Part shown: in pieces, positions 3,268-37,143 of the stretch
How positions within the stretch are numbered: the first letter of the stretch is position 1
Layout: every line of letters begins with the position of its first letter
Source: Escherichia phage D108
Sequence record: NC_013594.1
DNA length: 37,235 bases
Reading direction: 5' to 3' (one strand)
Made by a program: the position numbers and the translations under genes
Notes under the pieces: model-generated
Seen by the model: only the letters and a program-made list of their open reading frames with translations
The model's database searches: none
What the model was told of the DNA's origin: nothing

Positions 3268-3305
3268 TTAACGTTTAAACAAAATTTAATTACGAGGTTA
3301 TTCAG

Positions 3306-4244
3306 ATGAATATTTCCGATATTCGCGCAGGACTGCGCACGCTTGTAGAAAATGAAGAAACCACCTTTAAACAAATTGCTCTTGAGAGCGGACTTTCTAC
3401 CGGAACTATCAGTAGTTTTATCAATGATAAGTACAACGGGGATAACGAGCGTGTTTCACAAATGCTGCAACGCTGGCTGGAAAAATATCATGCAGTTGCA
3501 GAACTACCTGAACCGCCCCGCTTTGTGGAAACGCAGACGGTAAAACAAATCTGGACAAGTATGCGTTTTGCCAGCCTGACTGAAAGTATTGCTGTTGTAT
3601 GTGGCAATCCTGGTGTGGGCAAAACCGAAGCGGCCCGTGAATATCGCCGCACCAATAACAATGTCTGGATGATCACCATTACGCCATCCTGTGCCAGCGT
3701 TCTGGAATGTCTTACTGAACTGGCGTTTGAGCTGGGAATGAATGACGCACCACGCCGTAAAGGGCCGCTCTCCCGCGCCCTGCGACGTCGCCTTGAAGGT
3801 ACACAGGGGCTGGTTATCATCGACGAAGCTGATCATCTTGGTGCCGAAGTTCTGGAAGAACTCCGCCTGTTACAGGAATCAACCCGCACTGGCCTTGTGC
3901 TGATGGGAAATCACCGGGTTTATTCAAATATGACGGGGGGTAACAGAACGGTTGAATTTGCCCGTCTGTTTTCCCGTATTGCAAAGCGCACTGCAATTAA
4001 TAAAACCAAAAAAGCCGATGTAAAAGCTATTGCGGATGCCTGGCAGATTAACGGCGAAAATGAACTGGAGTTATTACAGCAGATTGCGCAGAAACCAGGT
4101 GCGCTTCGCATTCTGAATCATTCACTTCGCCTTGCCGCCATGACGGCTCACGGTAAAGGTGAGCGTGTTAACGAAGATTATCTGCGTCAGGCTTTCCGTG
4201 AATTAGACCTGGACGTTGATATTTCAACGCTGCTGCGTAATTAA
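3306..4244 (+). CDS. B: MuB AAA+ ATPase, transposition target-DNA activator (312 aa)
   Basis: Walker A GNPGVGKT and Walker B LVIIDEADHL; immediately downstream of A. Confidence 0.95.
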   Translation: MNISDIRAGLRTLVENEETTFKQIALESGLSTGTISSFINDKYNGDNERVSQMLQRWLEKYHAVAELPEPPRFVETQTVKQIWTSMRFASLTESIAVVCGNPGVGKTEAAREYRRTNNNVWMITITPSCASVLECLTELAFELGMNDAPRRKGPLSRALRRRLEGTQGLVIIDEADHLGAEVLEELRLLQESTRTGLVLMGNHRVYSNMTGGNRTVEFARLFSRIAKRTAINKTKKADVKAIADAWQINGENELELLQQIAQKPGALRILNHSLRLAAMTAHGKGERVNEDYLRQAFRELDLDVDISTLLRN

Positions 4245-6285: not shown

Positions 6286-6383
6286 TACCACCATTAATAT
6301 TTAATTAATTCACATTCTTTTAATTATGGCGCGATGCGTCAGGGGATTGCTCGCGCCTGAAACAGATTACTGAGGAATAAAAC

Positions 6384-6914
6384 ATGGTTGATGCAAAAAT
6401 TCTGAATGGTGTCAGCACATTATTACGGGCTTACGGACGCCTGACCTGCGGGGTTCTGGCTGAAAAAATGCAGATGCCATCCTCCGCAATGGTGTACTTC
6501 CTGCGTGATGCGGTTGATGCCGGAATGCTGACTGAACTTAATGGTTTTTACGACGTACCGCGTCCCCGTACAGAGCAGCCTGTAAGACGAAACGCAACTG
6601 AGCAGTCTGCTGTTGATGATGCCGCGTGGTGTTCCTTCCGCCGCCCATTGCCCTGGCTGGAAGGCAATGCCATTCCGGCACTGGCAAAAGAATTTGCAAC
6701 AGGCGTGCTGACCTGTGAATCCGTTCACATCGTTGCAGAAGTGGACAACAGAATGTGCGAACAGGGAATGCCCCGTTTTGTGATGGCTTATATCGATATC
6801 CGGCTGGGGCGTTTTATTTGCAGTTCCAGCGCCTGGAATATCACCGACCATGTACTGCGTTATCTCATTCTTGATTGTTCTCCGGCTCCCGCAGCGGTGC
6901 AGGAGGTGGCGTGA
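6384..6914 (+). CDS. Hypothetical early protein with winged-helix-like N-terminus (176 aa)
   Basis: SD GAGGAA upstream; N-terminal segment LLRAYGRLTCGVLAEKMQMPSSAMVYFLRDAVDAGML resembles a winged-helix DNA-binding domain. Confidence 0.6.
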   Translation: MVDAKILNGVSTLLRAYGRLTCGVLAEKMQMPSSAMVYFLRDAVDAGMLTELNGFYDVPRPRTEQPVRRNATEQSAVDDAAWCSFRRPLPWLEGNAIPALAKEFATGVLTCESVHIVAEVDNRMCEQGMPRFVMAYIDIRLGRFICSSSAWNITDHVLRYLILDCSPAPAAVQEVA

Positions 6915-30974: not shown

Positions 30975-31507
30975 CACCCTATCAGACGGCCTTTCTGCAA
31001 TTACTGCCGTCAGGGCTTGCCTGGAATAAAAGCCCCGACAGCAAATTATCTGCGCTGGCGCAGGCCATCAGCGACGTGATTGCCACTGCGGCGGATGATG
31101 CGCGGCAAATGCTGCGGGAGCGTTTCCCGTCCACATCCCGCTGGTATCTGGGGGAGTGGGAATCATTTCTGGGGTTGCCGGACTGTACCAGCGAAAACGG
31201 CACCCTGTCCGAACGCCAGCGGGCTGCCGCGAATAAAATGCGTATGACCGGCAATCTGAGTCGGCGCTTTTATGAATGGCTGGCTGCGCAGTACGGTTTT
31301 ACCGTCAGGCTGACGGATTCCACAGAAGGCCAGTGGGTTACGCAGGTCAATATTTACGGTATTAAAAATTATCGCAACGCAACGGTGCTGGATAATGTTC
31401 TGACGCCGTTACGTGTTTATGAATCGGGTGCGCTGGAATGTTTACTGGAGAAATATAAACCCGCACATCAGATTTATAAATTTGTTTACCATGACGGAGA
31501 TAACTAA
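30965..31507 (+). CDS. R: Baseplate/tail-fibre-attachment protein R, 180 aa
   Basis: Synteny; directly upstream of the tail fibre gene. Confidence 0.65.
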   Translation: MAVTPYQTAFLQLLPSGLAWNKSPDSKLSALAQAISDVIATAADDARQMLRERFPSTSRWYLGEWESFLGLPDCTSENGTLSERQRAAANKMRMTGNLSRRFYEWLAAQYGFTVRLTDSTEGQWVTQVNIYGIKNYRNATVLDNVLTPLRVYESGALECLLEKYKPAHQIYKFVYHDGDN

Positions 31508-33009
31508 TGTTTTATATTGATAACGACAGCGGCGTAACCGTCATGCCGCCCGTATCCGCCCAGCGTAGTGCTATCGTTCGCTGGTTTTCAGAAGGTGACG
31601 GGAATAATGTTATCACATGGCCCGGCATGGACTGGTTTAATATTGTTCAGGCGGAGTTATTAAACACGCTGGAAGAAGCCGGTATTCAACCGGATAAAAC
31701 AAAATTAAACCAGCTTGCACTGTCCATTAAAGCCATTATGAGCAATAACGCGCTGCTGATAAAAAATAACCTCAGCGAAATTAAAACTGCCGGGGCATCA
31801 GCACAGCGTACAGCACGTGAAAATCTGGATATCTATGATGCCAGCCTGAACAAAAAAGGACTCGTTCAGCTAACCAGTGCCACTGACAGCCCCAGTGAAA
31901 CGCTGGCAGCCACCGCAAAAGCGGTGAAAATTGCGATGGATAATGCCAATGCTCGTCTGGCAAAAGACCGGAACGGAGCAGATATTCCCAATAAGCCGCT
32001 GTTTATCCAAAACGTCGGTTTACAGGAAACGGTAAACAAGGCTGGTAACGCTGTTCAAAAGACAGGCGATACCTTGTCCGGTGGGCTTACTTTTGAAAAT
32101 GACTCAATCCTTGCCTGGATTCGAAATACTGACTGGGCGAAGATTGGATTTAAAAATGATGCCGATGGTGACACTGATTCATACATGTGGTTTGAAACAG
32201 GCGACAACGGCAATGAATATTTCAAATGGAGAAGCAAACGAGGCACCACAACAAAAGACCTGATGAATCTTAAATGGGATGCTTTGTATGTTCTTGTCAA
32301 TGCCATTGTAAACGGCGAAGTCATATCAAAATCAGCAAACGGCCTACGTATTGCTTATGGTAATTACGGATTCTTTATTCGTAATGATGGTTCAAATACA
32401 TACTTCATGTTGACAAACTCCGGTGACAACATGGGGACTTATAACGGATTAAGGCCATTATGGATTAATAACGCTACTGGCGCTGTTTCGATGGGGCGTG
32501 GCCTTAATGTTTCAGGGGAGACGCTTCAGACCGTTTGCTATAACAGCAGTAATGGTATGTGGATTCAGATGCGCGATAACAACGCTATCTTTGGGAAAAA
32601 TATAGTTAACACTGATAGCGCTCAGGCGTTGCTTCGCCAGAATCACGCTGACCGCAAGTTCATGATAGGTGGACTGGGGAACAAGCAATTTGGCATCTAC
32701 ATGATTAATAACTCAAGGACAGCCAATGGCACCGATGGTCAGGCGTACATGGACAATAACGGTAACTGGCTTTGCGGTGCGCAAATTATTCCCGGAAATT
32801 ATGGCAATTTTGACTCACGCTATGTGAGCGATGTCCGACTTGGCACACGTGTTGTTCAGACTATGCAAAAAGGCGTGATGTATGAGAAATCAGGTCATGC
32901 AATTACGGGGCTTGGCATTGTCGGTGAAGTTGATGGCGATGATCCGGCAGTATTCAGACCAATACAAAAATACATCAATGGCACATGGTATAACGTCGCA
33001 CAGGTGTAA
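31507..33009 (+). CDS. S: Tail fibre protein S (constant part Sc 31507-~32003 fused to variable part Sv), 500 aa
   Basis: gixL lies inside the ORF at 32004-32037; C-terminus ends RPIQKYINGTWYN, similar to the end of S' on the opposite strand. Confidence 0.85.
   Translation: MFYIDNDSGVTVMPPVSAQRSAIVRWFSEGDGNNVITWPGMDWFNIVQAELLNTLEEAGIQPDKTKLNQLALSIKAIMSNNALLIKNNLSEIKTAGASAQRTARENLDIYDASLNKKGLVQLTSATDSPSETLAATAKAVKIAMDNANARLAKDRNGADIPNKPLFIQNVGLQETVNKAGNAVQKTGDTLSGGLTFENDSILAWIRNTDWAKIGFKNDADGDTDSYMWFETGDNGNEYFKWRSKRGTTTKDLMNLKWDALYVLVNAIVNGEVISKSANGLRIAYGNYGFFIRNDGSNTYFMLTNSGDNMGTYNGLRPLWINNATGAVSMGRGLNVSGETLQTVCYNSSNGMWIQMRDNNAIFGKNIVNTDSAQALLRQNHADRKFMIGGLGNKQFGIYMINNSRTANGTDGQAYMDNNGNWLCGAQIIPGNYGNFDSRYVSDVRLGTRVVQTMQKGVMYEKSGHAITGLGIVGEVDGDDPAVFRPIQKYINGTWYNVAQV
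32004..32037. repeat. gixL, left 34-bp inverted repeat of the G segment
   Basis: gtttatccaaaacgtcggtttacaggaaacggtaaa is the reverse complement of 35043-35076 with 2 central mismatches. Confidence 0.9.
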
Positions 33010-33012
33010 TTT

Positions 33013-33540
33013 ATGCAGCATTTAAAAAATATTAAGTCTGGAAATCCAAAAACAAAAGAACAATATCAGCTAACAAAGAATTTTGATGTTATCTGGTTAT
33101 GGTCCGAAGACGGAAAAAACTGGTATGAGGAAGTGAAAAACTTTCAGCCAGACACAATAAAGATTGTTTACGATGCAAATAATATTATTGTCGCCATCAC
33201 CAAAGATGCCTCCACGCTTAACCCTGAAGGTTATAGCGTCGTTGAGGTTCCTGATATTACAGCTAATCGTCGTGCTGATGATTCCGGTAAGTGGATGTTT
33301 AAGGACGGAGCTGTGGTTAAACGGATTTATACGGCAGACGAGCAACAACAACAGGCCGAATCACAAAAGGCCGCGTTACTTTCCGAAGCAGAAAACGTTA
33401 TTCAGCCACTGGAACGCGCTGTCAGGCTGAATATGGCGACGGATGAGGAACGCGCACGACTGGAGTCATGGGAACGCTATAGTGTTCTGGTCAGCCGTGT
33501 GGATACGGCAAATCCTGAATGGCCACAAAAGCCTGAATAA
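33013..33540 (+). CDS. U: Tail fibre assembly chaperone U (175 aa)
   Basis: Paralogous to U' (shared [17 protein letters not shown]...DGKNWYEE...[26 protein letters not shown]). Confidence 0.85.
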
Positions 33541-33545
33541 AAATT

Positions 33546-33565
33546 AAGGCCCGATAGCGGGCCTT
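33546..33565. terminator. Bidirectional hairpin between convergent U and U'
   Basis: aaggcccg-atag-cgggcctt in the 28-bp gap between the two convergent stop codons. Confidence 0.55.
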
Positions 33566-33568
33566 GTT

Positions 33569-34102
33569 TCATTCTGGTTGTTCTGGAAACGTTACTGGCA
33601 GGCTGGAGGTGTCTGTGGATTCGACCTTCTGCGCATAGAGCATCCACTCGGTTAATTTTTGTTTATTCTCGTCGGAAATGATGCCCAGCCGTAGCTGTGA
33701 GTCCCATAGCTGGGTTTTATCCCTGACAAGTTGCAACAGGCTTTGCTTTTCATTCTCTGCCTGCTGCCTCTGTTCCTCCTCGGTATAAGTTCGCTTTATC
33801 ACTACGCCATCTTTGAACATCCATTTACCCGAAATATCAGCCCGGCGATTTGCTGTAATATCAGGTAATTCAACGACGCTTGCGCCTTCCGGATTAATTG
33901 CTGAAACATCCTTTTCAATACAAATAATAACGCCGTTATGGTCATAGACCATTTTCAAAGTGTCTGGCTGGAAATTCTTTTGTTCCTCATACCAGTTTTT
34001 TCCATCATCTGAATAAAGCCATTTGATGTTAAATTGCTTTGTTAGCTGGTATTGCTCTTTTGTTTTAGGGTTGCCAGCAGTAATGTTTTTTAAGTGCATC
34101 AT
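33569..34102 (-). CDS. Tail fibre assembly chaperone U' (177 aa)
   Basis: Paralog of U on the opposite strand inside the G segment. Confidence 0.85.
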   Translation of the reverse strand: MMHLKNITAGNPKTKEQYQLTKQFNIKWLYSDDGKNWYEEQKNFQPDTLKMVYDHNGVIICIEKDVSAINPEGASVVELPDITANRRADISGKWMFKDGVVIKRTYTEEEQRQQAENEKQSLLQLVRDKTQLWDSQLRLGIISDENKQKLTEWMLYAQKVESTDTSSLPVTFPEQPE

Positions 34103-34104
34103 CG

Positions 34105-35042
34105 TTAAATACTCCCCGCGTTATACCACGTCCCATTAATGCAATACTGAATTGGCCTTGCCTGAGTTGTATCAATTAATTCATCACGGTTTCCGTTAAC
34201 TGAACCCGTAACGACATAACCTGACCTGTCAGACCAGCCGGGGCCATTCCATGTCTGAACAGATGACAGACCGCCAAGGCGAATACCTGTAATAAACCTT
34301 GAGTTACATTCTGCCTGCGTGTATGCACCAACATCTCCCGCAGAGGGTTTGCGGGTCGTGGTGTAAAACTCTGACCAGTCAGCCTCAAATCCATAACCAT
34401 CACGCGCTGAACGATAAAAAATACCGCCGTTCCTGTAATTCACGCGGAACTGTACAGCAGGGCAGCTCCCCGTATTCATATTGAAGTGGAGGATTAATGT
34501 CGATGCGCCACCAATGTTTGCGTTATAGACCCCGCTATTCCAGTTCCAGCCAACAGCTTTATCATTTCCGACAGTGCTTCCTGTTTGCCCTAAAGCAAAT
34601 GCAGGTTGTTGATTTTTCGTGTTGTAGTCTCGTCGCCAGCCAGGAGCATAAGCATCACCATGATTAATATAAGTGAATTGAGCGTTAGTAATTCCGCCAC
34701 CGCTGGACGTGCTCGGCGTGGTAACGCGTATGGTCATTGCGCCGCGAGTGCCAATAACTTCCACCACAGCACCTGCAAGACAAATATTTCCGCAACCTGT
34801 ATCTGTAATGACCTTATTATTTGCATAAGCCCATGAGCCTTTGCACATCCAGTAAGGATGGTTAAATGCCCCCTGACTCTCCAGCCACAAAATGAATTGT
34901 GCGGTTGTCCAGGCCTGACTATCGCCACCAATATTCAGCCATGCGCTATATGCGCGGCAGGCACCAATATTTTTGGTGAAGGTATCTTTTCCTGGAATAT
35001 CTGCACCGTTCTGGTTTTTCTGTAATGCGCCAGAAGCCTGAT
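34105..35042 (-). CDS. S'v, alternative tail fibre variable region (lacks its own start; expressed after G inversion by fusion to Sc)
   Basis: Minus-strand frame open from gixR (stop just outside at 35068-35070) down to 34105; begins NLGLQETVNQ..., paralleling S after gixL (NVGLQETVNK...). Confidence 0.8.
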
Positions 35043-35076
35043 TTACCGTTTCCTGTAAACCGAGGTTTTAGATAAT
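35043..35076. repeat. gixR, right 34-bp inverted repeat of the G segment
   Basis: tttaccgtttcctgtaaaccgaggttttagataa; inverted copy of gixL. Confidence 0.9.
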
Positions 35077-35129: not shown

Positions 35130-35723
35130 GTGCTGATTGGCTATGTAAGGGTATCAACAAATGACCAGAATACAGACCTGCAACGAAACGCTCTTGTTTG
35201 TGCAGGATGTGAACAAATATTTGAAGATAAATTAAGCGGAACAAGGACAGACAGACCTGGATTAAAACGCGCGTTAAAGCGCCTTCAAAAAGGTGACACA
35301 CTGGTTGTCTGGAAACTGGATCGCCTCGGGCGAAGCATGAAACATCTGATTTCCCTCGTCGGGGAACTACGGGAGCGAGGGATTAATTTTCGCAGTCTTA
35401 CCGACAGCATAGACACATCTTCTCCAATGGGGCGTTTTTTCTTCCACGTTATGGGTGCCCTGGCTGAAATGGAACGAGAACTAATCATCGAGCGAACGAT
35501 GGCTGGACTTGCTGCCGCCAGAAATAAAGGCCGTATTGGTGGGCGACCACCTAAACTAACCAAAGCGGAATGGGAGCAGGCCGGGCGTTTATTAGCACAA
35601 GGAATCCCCCGCAAGCAGGTTGCATTGATCTACGATGTGGCCCTGTCAACTCTGTATAAAAAACACCCCGCGAAACGAACGCATATAGAAAACGACGATC
35701 GAATCAATCAAATCGATCGGTAA
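35130..35723 (+). CDS. gin: Gin DNA invertase, serine recombinase of the Hin/Gin/Cin family (197 aa)
   Basis: N-terminal catalytic domain (LIGYVRVSTNDQNTDLQ, active-site Ser), C-terminal HTH; adjacent to gixR. The recombinational enhancer is expected within its 5' coding part. Confidence 0.95.
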   Translation: MLIGYVRVSTNDQNTDLQRNALVCAGCEQIFEDKLSGTRTDRPGLKRALKRLQKGDTLVVWKLDRLGRSMKHLISLVGELRERGINFRSLTDSIDTSSPMGRFFFHVMGALAEMERELIIERTMAGLAAARNKGRIGGRPPKLTKAEWEQAGRLLAQGIPRKQVALIYDVALSTLYKKHPAKRTHIENDDRINQIDR

Positions 35724-35805: not shown

Positions 35806-35994
35806 ATGAAATCAATTCGCTGTAAAAACTGCAACAAACTGTTATTTAAGGCGGATTCCTTTGATCACATTGAAATCAGGTGTCCGCGTTGCAAACGTCA
35901 CATCATAATGCTGAATGCCTGCGAGCATCCCACGGAGAAACATTGTGGGAAAAGAGAAAAAATCACGCATTCTGACGAAACCGTGCGTTATTGA
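35806..35994 (+). CDS. com: Com, zinc-finger translational activator of mom (62 aa)
   Basis: C-x2-C...C-x2-C zinc finger (CKNC...CPRC); overlaps the 5' end of mom. Confidence 0.9.
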
Positions 35995-36652
35995 GTATGA
36001 AGGCCAGATTGTTGGCTATGGTTCAAAGGAGCTGCGCGTTGAAACCATATCCTGCTGGCTGGCCCGCACAATTATTCAGACAAAGCACTATTCCCGCCGT
36101 TTTGTGAATAACTCTTACCTCCACCTGGGAGTATTCAGCGGACGCGATCTGGTTGGCGTTCTCCAGTGGGGATATGCCCTTAACCCCAACTCAGGTCGTC
36201 GTGTCGTGCTTGAAACGGATAACCGGGGCTATATGGAGTTGAACCGCATGTGGCTACACGACGACATGCCCCGCAACTCTGAATCACGGGCCATCAGTTA
36301 TGCACTGAAAACCATAAGGTTACTGTATCCGTCAGTGGAGTGGGTTCAGTCTTTTGCAGACGAACGCTGCGGACGTGCTGGCGTTGTGTATCAGGCGTCA
36401 AATTTTGATTTTATTGGCAGCCATGAAAGCACGTTCTACGAGCTGGATGGTGAGTGGTATCACGAGATAACGATGAACGCAATTAAGCGCGGTGGACAAC
36501 GAGGCATGTATTTACGGGCTAATAAAGAGCGTGCCGTGGTGCACAAATTTAATCAGTATCGCTACATCAGGTTCCTGAACAAGCGAGCAAGAAAGCGGCT
36601 AAATACCAAACTATTCAGGATTCAGCCATACCCAAAAAGCAGTTCTGATTAG
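35945..36652 (+). CDS. mom: Mom DNA modification protein (adenine modification, anti-restriction); start uncertain
   Basis: ORF overlapping the com 3' end. GTG at 35945 has GGAG 7-8 nt upstream; the first in-frame ATG (35915) lacks an SD. Body ...[18 protein letters not shown]... through the stop at 36652. Confidence 0.85.
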
Positions 36653-36696: not shown

Positions 36697-37143
36697 ATGA
36701 AAAAATCAAAATTGCTAATCAGTACCATCATCAGCCTATTCGTACTAACCGCCTCCTCAGTCAATCACGCTCAAGAAAAAGATTTTGATCCTGAAGTGGC
36801 TGCTGATGCAGTCTTAAGGTCCGCCGGGATAGATCCAGATAAGAGTGTTGCAAATAAAGCCCCTGCCTCTGGTTTTTGGACCTGCCACGGTATTCGTATG
36901 CATATGGGCGTTGATATGGGGTCATGGACAGACCTTGATACAGGTGAACTATACACTCAGATAGAAACAGGCCAAATTGACGAACAAGACAAGGATGAAA
37001 AGATTAAAGGGACTGATTATCTCTATGCTTTGACTAGAAATCCTGCGGTTATAAAGTATTTTATCGTTGATAAATCAGGAAAAAATCTTTATATCCGAGA
37101 TGATGTGAATATTTTTAAGACATATAAATGTAAACGAAACTGA
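36697..37143 (+). CDS. Cargo (moron) gene: secreted/periplasmic protein of unknown function with cleavable signal peptide (148 aa)
   Basis: Own SD (ACGGAG); signal peptide MKKSKLLISTIISLFVLTASSVNHA-QE; two Cys in the mature part; visibly lower GC and rare codons (CTA, ATA, TTA) versus neighbouring phage genes; sits between mom and the right-end sites. Confidence 0.7.
   Translation: MKKSKLLISTIISLFVLTASSVNHAQEKDFDPEVAADAVLRSAGIDPDKSVANKAPASGFWTCHGIRMHMGVDMGSWTDLDTGELYTQIETGQIDEQDKDEKIKGTDYLYALTRNPAVIKYFIVDKSGKNLYIRDDVNIFKTYKCKRN

Follow-up and report, generated by a model that had tools for sequence, protein, structure and literature searches.

The invertible G segment of Escherichia phage D108: a probable Mu-type DNA-inversion switch for host range

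Main finding

Escherichia phage D108 carries a 3-kb region that is most probably a Mu-type G segment, acting as a DNA-inversion switch for host range (we put this reading at about 0.88). Within the window, that is the whole stretch of 37,235 nucleotides analysed here (NC_013594.1), this region was 95% DNA-identical to and colinear with the annotated Mu G region over the genes S, U, U', S'v, gin, com and mom. It shared with Mu the gene order Sc / Sv U / U' S'v / gin com mom and the TC crossover. Switching of host range by site-specific DNA inversion is classic for the G segment of Mu and its relatives, including D108 and the C segment of P1. The D108 G segment is well known, textbook biology. 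The D108 evidence comes from one assembled sequence, and a single sequence cannot show inversion; for D108 itself we infer the inversion, its rate, its dependence on Fis and the hosts of each fibre.

Genes and orientation of the G segment

The segment and its genes are laid out as follows.

32015..35063: invertible G segment, 3,049 bp with the crossover dinucleotides included, here in the G(+) orientation
31507..32014, plus strand: Sc, the constant N-terminal part of S up to the crossover, including the gixL outer half-site
32015..33009, plus strand: Sv, the variable C-terminal part of S, expressed in the present orientation
33013..33540, plus strand: U (175 aa), assembly chaperone of the S tail fibre
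33545..33566: GC-rich hairpin on which U and U' converge, T runs present on either strand
33569..34102, minus strand: U' (177 aa), chaperone of S', silent as the segment now lies
34105..35063, minus strand: S'v, alternative variable tail-fibre C-terminus, an open frame, silent in the present orientation

The S frame (31507-33009, 500 aa) passes through the left repeat into Sv and is followed by U at 33013-33540, as the earlier note had described for the plus strand. Its product was exactly ACV50309.1 / YP_003335798.1, "tail fiber protein [Escherichia phage D108]". The constant part was identical to Mu S in all 165 of its residues 1-165 and matched the Pfam family Phage_fiber_2. On the minus strand the S'v frame ran without interruption from the right repeat to a stop at 34105-34107, with U' next to it (34102-33569), again as previously reported. 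S'v had no start codon of its own. It was identical to Mu S'v at 314 of 318 aligned residues, with a Pfam gp37_C match and a structure match to PDB 8ju3, the Mu S-S' fibre. Both chaperones belonged to Pfam Caudo_TAP (E=5e-38 for U, E=6e-37 for U') and were close to their Mu counterparts, with 167/175 identical residues in U and 173/177 in U'. The present order Sc-Sv-U is the G(+), S-U-expressing orientation, and this reading of the earlier note holds.

The hairpin between U and U' was terminator-like on both strands (fold energies of -15.5 and -19.9 kcal/mol, z-scores of -3.1 and -5.3), and it is likely a bidirectional terminator for whichever gene pair is expressed. A sigma-70 scan of the region called neither a promoter-like site upstream of S'v nor a gin promoter; its 6 hits were fewer than the 8.8 found in shuffles.

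Inverted repeats and crossover sites

Two inverted repeats of 34 bp flank the segment, each containing a 26-bp gix site.

32003-32036, plus strand: left repeat, TTATCCAAAACGTCGGTTTACAGGAAACGGTAAA, containing gixL at 32003-32028
35075-35042, minus strand: right repeat, TTATCTAAAACCTCGGTTTACAGGAAACGGTAAA, containing gixR at 35075-35050

The earlier note had placed the repeats at 32004 and 35076, which is off by one base; the arms lie at 32003-32036 and 35042-35075. Its count of two 34-bp repeats with two mismatches around a segment of ~3 kb was right, while its description of the mismatches as central was not: they fall at position 6 (C>T in the right arm) and position 12 (C>G in the left arm) of the 34-mer. 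The Mu repeats are perfect, in contrast to those of D108. Relative to Mu, gixL carries C12>G and gixR carries C6>T, so that each site is one mismatch away from Mu gix. The crossover dinucleotide TC is the same in both sites (32015-32016 in gixL, 35063-35062 in gixR), and position 12 directly abuts it. The C6>T change in the right arm creates a TAA just outside the G segment, without effect.

Both mismatches are in the outer half-sites, which stay put on inversion, and over their inner 20 bp the repeats do not differ; the two sites are therefore left unchanged by inversion. We rejected on these grounds the idea that the mismatches bias the direction of inversion. Neither allele was confined to D108. 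The gixL C12>G allele was also found in SfMu, in two E. coli prophages and in eight IMG/VR contigs, and the T allele of gixR is common in Mu-like prophages.

Gin and a candidate enhancer

The gene adjoining the segment encodes the invertase, with a candidate enhancer in its 5' part.

35130..35723, plus strand: gin, encoding a 197-aa serine DNA invertase, with a GTG start codon and Ser9 as the catalytic residue
35148..35219: candidate recombinational enhancer (Fis-binding "sis"), within the 5' part of gin

Gin had the Pfam domains Resolvase (PF00239, E=7e-50) and HTH_7 (PF02796, E=2e-17), with Ser9 located in the motif VLIGYVRVS, and matched the Gin structure PDB 3uj3 (E=3.5e-125). It was exactly the sequence named GIN_BPD10. 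Compared with Mu Gin it was identical at 192 of 193 residues and had four extra residues at the C-terminus. Gin is intact.

The first 123 nucleotides of gin were identical to Mu. Within them, the stretch 35148-35219 aligned with the annotated enhancer of P1 cin (gene nt 19-90) at 55/72 identical positions, making it a candidate enhancer. It contains two candidate Fis sites recognized by sequence (35151-35165 and 35200-35214), 49 bp apart, and may function as the recombinational enhancer. Another pair of candidate Fis sites, at 35175 and 35223 (48 bp apart), was replaced by this one, which aligns with the enhancer annotated in P1; both guesses lie within sequence identical to Mu.

Two sites and one segment

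The region had earlier been titled a shufflon. In a true shufflon, as in R64 or the Min region of p15B, several crossover sites would give more than two fibre variants. Besides that title, the internal inverted repeats I1 and I2 (33013-33359 versus 33756-34102, 72-75% complementary) could speak for such an arrangement. These repeats are simply U and U', which are homologous and oriented towards one another. A scan of the 37 kb with the 26-bp gix consensus gave only two matches, gixL and gixR, even when up to 8 of the 26 positions were allowed to mismatch (0.00 expected by chance, from dinucleotide-preserving shuffles). The sites are gix-type, and the recombinase belongs to the serine invertases, whereas Rci is a tyrosine recombinase. 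With exactly two sites, one segment and serine recombinase domains, we rejected a multi-site Rci system, whose probability is close to nil, and the label does not fit.

R64 (Rci/sfx) and p15B Min do resemble D108 in that the C-terminus of a receptor-binding protein is diversified by site-specific inversion. They have many sites and segments, in contrast to the two sites and one segment of D108, and R64 uses a tyrosine recombinase on pilV where D108 has a serine recombinase. In R64-type shufflons, Rci acts on 19-bp sfx repeats.

In-silico inversion and the proposed switch

When the segment was flipped in silico at the shared TC, Sc was joined in frame to S'v, giving a 488-aa S' followed by U'. 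This product was 96.5% identical to SfMu_49, the fibre expressed by SfMu. The crossover thus sits inside a tail-fibre gene, whose single 5' part can be fused in frame to two 3' parts, each with its own Caudo_TAP chaperone. The near-identical residues NVGLQETVNK and NLGLQETVNQ had been noted before as following the repeats; they are indeed near-identical, and it is the repeats that encode NVGLQETVN and NLGLQETVN. The S' formed by inversion would have NVGLQETVNQ, since Sc keeps the first base of the V codon. Exactly this reading is found in SfMu.

In the switch that we propose, the late tail operon would read S from the fixed Sc into the adjoining variable 3' part, which in G(+) means from Sc into Sv and then the chaperone U. 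The neighbouring gene would supply small amounts of Gin, whose dimers would bind gixL and gixR, the inverted 26-bp sites. Once Fis on the enhancer within the 5' end of gin had activated it, Gin would cut both sites at the shared central TC, and a 180-degree strand rotation would invert the 3,049 bp. Sc would then be fused in frame to S'v (the 488-aa S'), with U' behind it, and the central hairpin would end transcription in either orientation. Since Gin would flip the segment and thereby swap the fibre tips, a lysogenic culture would release a mixed phage population, its two fibre types using different LPS receptors.

The G segment looks working. The word "intact" in the earlier note needs qualifying, given the non-identical sites, with one change abutting the crossover, and a private patch of three 1-nt deletions in Sv.

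Both orientations among relatives

The orientation counts were drawn from E. coli complete genomes and IMG/VR. The combination found in D108 (gixL C12>G, gixR C6>T and a Gin identical at 197/197 residues) was present in E. coli O111:H2 12A, in the G(+) orientation, and in E. coli 22KM0354 and SfMu, both of which were G(-). Eight IMG/VR contigs carried the C12>G gixL on a Mu-type Sc. The site was followed by Sv in four of them (L006, L010, L011 and L012) and by S'v in two (L007 and L013); L009 had both junction types, and L008 ended at the site. In GTDB genomes the junction of Sc with the C12>G gixL gave 0 hits, a result that does not bear on how often each orientation occurs. Two assemblies of E. 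coli W had opposite junctions at identical coordinates, showing that switching takes place in nature.

The G segments of the D108/SfMu-type relatives were only about 90-92% identical. Judged from these sequences, the opposite orientations in relatives reflect flips during their divergence, and they say nothing on the present rate.

Possible effect of the base next to the crossover

The C12>G change could lock the switch, or make it very slow, if it prevented or strongly slowed cleavage or religation by Gin; D108 would then be effectively fixed in G(+). The base adjoins the cleavage site, on the nucleotide pair whose bottom strand joins Gin Ser9, and D108 does have an asymmetry beside the crossover that Mu lacks. 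SfMu, with the same allele, had the same host range in induced and in infection-grown lysates, and its authors proposed that the change could reduce or abolish inversion (PMC4406740). They also offered an alternative, namely that the other fibre had no host among the strains tested (PMC4406740).

Several observations argue against a lock. Gin tolerates CC, CG, GG and TG at core positions 3 and 2, as measured with an activated catalytic domain fused to zinc fingers on symmetric sites, not with wild-type Gin and Fis (PMC3616721). CG is one of these four combinations, so the CG made by C12>G should be allowed. The mismatch lies in an outer half-site and the 2-nt TC overhangs are the same in both sites, hence no mispaired overhang would arise. 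Moreover, the identical pair of sites with the identical Gin was present in both orientations among the E. coli prophages, SfMu and the IMG/VR contigs, and one metagenome contig had both junction types. A locked switch is therefore unlikely. The D108/SfMu lineage has non-identical gix sites yet occurs in both orientations, which argues against the published suggestion of a lock.

A milder effect is somewhat less improbable, and we propose it tentatively: C12>G in gixL, on the Sc side, could be a natural rate-tuning variant, with slower cleavage by Gin at one site and rarer switching than in Mu. If true, this would explain why SfMu lysates showed no broadening of host range, and it would be a natural case of a phase-variation rate tuned via a core-adjacent base.

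The variable tip of S and a private patch

The earlier note had asked for a comparison of Sv and S'v with known tail fibres. S'v was Mu-like (see above), whereas the last ~54 aa of Sv were unrelated in detail to the receptor-binding tip of Mu (26/60 identical) and nearer to P1 S (40/54). The last 72 residues of Sv were 95.8% identical to vB_YpM_5. By sequence the Sv tip is P1/P2-type, not Mu-type. Given such a tip, the host range of D108 in G(+) would be expected to be closer to that of P1(S) than to that of Mu(S).

A short part of Sv was private to this sequence record.

32518..32550, plus strand: private Sv patch, three separate 1-nt deletions in T runs

The deletions put about nine codons out of frame, giving ETLQTVCYNSS versus DTLSDRFAINSS in Mu, and the net change of -3 restores the frame. 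No exact match to the D108 version of the patch was found in IMG/VR or in GTDB genomes, compared with 23 exact matches in IMG/VR for the Mu version. The residues that it replaces are common to Mu, A20 and SfMu at the nucleotide level; in P1, only 7 of the 13 aligned positions match in that bin.

If the deletions are real, they could damage the conserved fibre motif DRFAINSS and make the G(+) fibre defective, leaving only G(-) phages infectious. The privacy of the patch and the loss of shared residues fit this idea. On the other hand, three independent losses of one base in homopolymer runs, all within ~20 nt, resemble base-calling errors more than biology; the reading frame recovers, and outside the patch Sv was 97-99% identical to relatives. 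In addition, D108 is propagated on E. coli K-12, where Mu-type phages need the G(+) fibre. A defective G(+) fibre is thus very improbable, and the patch is possibly a sequencing artefact. The triple deletion in the deposited Sv is suspicious, and we advise re-checking it before any modelling or engineering of the fibre.

Comparison with other inversion systems

Two features set D108 apart from Mu within this region besides the sites and the Sv tip: the C-terminal extension of Gin and the private nine-codon patch. SfMu (KP010268) had the gixL and gixR alleles of D108 and exactly its Gin protein. It was deposited as G(-), opposite to D108, and its G segment was about 90-92% identical and mosaic.

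The C segment of P1 and P7 (Cin, cix) is similarly organized: it has the alternatives Sc/Sv-U and Sv'-U' and a serine invertase whose gene contains an enhancer. The body of the P1 segment was about 91% DNA-identical to that of D108. Unlike D108, P1 has a different, longer Sc, a longer segment (4.2 kb) and cix sites whose outer half-sites differ, and Cin is on the other side and in the opposite orientation.

The H segment of Salmonella (Hin/hix) and the P segment of e14 (Pin) belong to the same family of Fis/enhancer-dependent serine invertases, which use 26-bp sites and a 2-bp staggered cut (PMC3798978). Hin flips a promoter for flagellin genes, while in D108 the 3' ends of a tail-fibre gene would be exchanged. 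At the other end of the window, the left end (1-1467) was unlike Mu and fits the D108-type immunity (PMC4406740).

The invertible G segment and its crossover sites

In every feature that sequence can show, the D108 tail-fibre locus agrees with a Mu-type serine-invertase switch. Both the system, the textbook Gin/gix/Fis invertasome (PMC3798978, PMC10434027), and the D108 genome itself are already known. Gene for gene, the G region was colinear with its annotated counterpart in Mu (tail fibre S, U, U', S'v, Gin, Com, Mom), at 95% identity. Leaving aside the left 1.5 kb, identity to Mu was 97.7% over the window's first 25 kb; the divergent left end is the D108/SfMu-type immunity region (PMC4406740). 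The tail-fibre gene S has a constant 5' part (Sc) and alternative variable 3' parts (Sv, S'v), and U and U' are the respective chaperones.

Features of the D108 G region
31507-33009, plus strand, S, open reading frame of 500 aa spanning the left repeat
32003-32036, plus strand, left 34-bp repeat, TTATCCAAAACGTCGGTTTACAGGAAACGGTAAA, read directly from the sequence
33013-33540, plus strand, U, open reading frame
33545-33566, both strands, GC-rich hairpin between the converging U and U', terminator-like on both
34102-33569, minus strand, U', open reading frame
from the right repeat as far as the stop codon (34105-34107), minus strand, S'v, open frame by frame reading
35075-35042, minus strand, right 34-bp repeat, TTATCTAAAACCTCGGTTTACAGGAAACGGTAAA, read directly from the sequence

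An inverted-repeat search of the window returned arms at 32003-32060 and 35018-35075. The 34-bp inverted repeats with two mismatches described in the earlier note were recovered by direct reading (mismatches at positions 6 and 12), but its outer coordinates, 32004 and 35076, were each shifted by one base. In a search with the 26-bp gix sequence of Mu, the window gave two matches at ≤3 mismatches, both in the repeats (gixL and gixR; 0.00 expected from shuffles), and no third match even at ≤8 mismatches. Both sites have TC as central dinucleotide (32015-16, 35063-62). The label "shufflon", given to the locus before, was rejected: it needs multiple sites plus the tyrosine recombinase Rci, and the D108 locus has neither. 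Apart from this word and small corrections, the remaining observation and interpretation were right.

The two Mu repeats are perfect, whereas D108 carries C12>G in the left and C6>T in the right one. Both changes lie in the outer half-sites, the non-moving parts, with C12>G adjoining the crossover. The inner 20 bp and the 2-nt overhangs are identical between the two sites, so inversion would restore the same two sites without an overhang mismatch.

Reading frames and predicted inversion product

The frames agreed with the earlier reading: S runs through the left repeat and is followed by U, and on the minus strand S'v is open to 34105, followed by U'. Inversion of 32015-35063 in silico joined Sc in frame to S'v, giving an S' of 488 aa, with U' beginning two bases after it. 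Aligned from end to end, this predicted S' shared 96.5% identity with the fibre expressed by SfMu, a phage deposited in the opposite orientation. Compared with Mu, 314/318 residues were identical in S'v, 173/177 in U' and 167/175 in U.

Phage_fiber_2 and Gp34_trimer domains were found in Sc/Sv and a gp37_C domain in S'v, while U and U' both matched Caudo_TAP chaperones. Close relatives in the PDB were 5yvq (Mu S) and 8ju3 (Mu S-S' fibre). The 500-aa S matched exactly ACV50309.1/YP_003335798.1, "tail fiber protein [Escherichia phage D108]", and by exact-sequence look-up was a singleton, present on one contig.

Where Mu, E. coli A20 and SfMu have longer T runs, Sv lacked a single nucleotide at three separate places within ~20 nt (patch ~32518-32550), shifting nine codons (ETLQTVCYNSS vs DTLSDRFAINSS) before the frame was restored. 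No exact match to the D108 version of the patch occurred in IMG/VR or in GTDB genomes; the Mu version had 23 in IMG/VR. A base-calling or sequencing artefact in the D108 deposit is the likeliest explanation.

Comparing Sv with known fibres for host prediction, as had been proposed, pointed to P1. The receptor-binding tip (last ~54 residues) shared 40/54 residues with P1 S and only 26/60 with Mu. Over the last 72 Sv residues, identity to vB_YpM_5, a Mu-like phage of Yersinia, was 95.8%, and P2-like fibres were also near the D108 tip. Tail-fibre mosaicism of this type is well known. P1(S) infects E. coli K-12 and C, and Mu(S) only K-12 (bioRxiv 10.1101/2022.07.24.501295). From its P1-like tip, the host range of D108 G(+), the Sc-Sv-U-expressing orientation of the window, is predicted to be closer to P1(S) than to Mu(S).

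Gin and its enhancer

Gin had Resolvase and HTH_7 domains with Ser9, matched exactly the sequence named GIN_BPD10, and was identical to Mu Gin at 192/193 residues, plus four extra C-terminal residues. It has 197 instead of 193 aa (35709-35723) because a C at 35709, where Mu has T, alters the Mu stop codon. This longer protein is the common form, the exact sequence occurring on 996 contigs. Nucleotides 1-123 of gin were identical to Mu and 35148-35219 aligned with the enhancer annotated inside P1 cin; these matches make it very probable that 5' gin contains a Fis-dependent enhancer. A promoter scan of the region found no promoter-like site upstream of S'v.

Both orientations in natural sequences

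The unequal sites could mean a locked switch. For SfMu, with the same C12>G allele, its authors proposed that the change beside the crossover could reduce or abolish inversion, having seen no difference in host range between induced and infection-grown lysates; alternatively, the other fibre may have no host within their strain panel (PMC4406740). Against a lock, C12>G yields CG, and profiling of the Gin catalytic domain, with an activated Gin-zinc-finger fusion on symmetric sites, showed that core positions 3 and 2 accept CC, CG, GG and TG, and position 8, the site of C6>T, any base (PMC3616721). The identical pair of site alleles, with a 197/197-identical Gin, also occurred in both orientations: G(+) in E. 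coli O111:H2 12A, and G(-), expressing Sc-S'v-U', in E. coli 22KM0354 and SfMu. Eight IMG/VR contigs carried the C12>G gixL on a Mu-type Sc, which continued into Sv (four), into S'v (two), ended at the site (one) or showed both junctions (one, L009). These sequence data show that flips happened in the lineage of the D108 site alleles; the present rate in D108 is not given by them. The gixL change next to the core may tune how often the segment switches, although we consider such tuning rather unlikely.

L009 (IMGVR_UViG_3300023289_000038) is a 6.5-kb metagenome contig (relevant parts 3274-3850 and 6380-6497). At one G-segment end, Sc-gixL(C12>G) joins an S'v variant, whose start resembles P1 S' (GGTTTACGAGAACTCGG); at the other, where the contig terminates, this Sc flank with its gixL runs into Sv. 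Such a hairpin-like assembly path is the pattern expected if both orientations coexist in the sampled population. Among the eight contigs, L006, L008, L012 and L013 also break off at the gix site or no more than a few hundred bases from it, L008 exactly at it, consistent with assemblers stopping at an orientation-heterogeneous segment.

Among complete E. coli genomes, 23 had the Sc-Sv and 12 the Sc-S'v junction. In E. coli W, two assemblies carry the Mu-like prophage with opposite junctions at identical assembly coordinates, a natural record of G inversion inside one strain:
NC_017635.1 and NC_017664.1, both 297266-297766, Sc junctions of opposite types (Sc-S'v, Sc-Sv)

Strain ST18 (NZ_CP060709.1) had one copy of each junction.

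Right end beyond gin

Compared with the Mu annotation, the mom frame as listed (35915-36652) begins 10 codons farther upstream and stops four codons later; its 3' end and the sequence past ~36600 are divergent, the last bin being 66% identical to Mu. The interval from mom to the right end holds a 148-aa open reading frame (36697-37143, plus strand) with a signal-peptide-like N-terminus. Its 5' end lies past the end of the Mu match, which stops at ~36633, the comparison with Mu being limited to that 5' end. It had no Pfam match, carries a hypothetical-protein annotation in E. coli A20, Mu_3F6 and vB_YpM_3, and matched PHROG 15648 (unknown function, E=8e-88).
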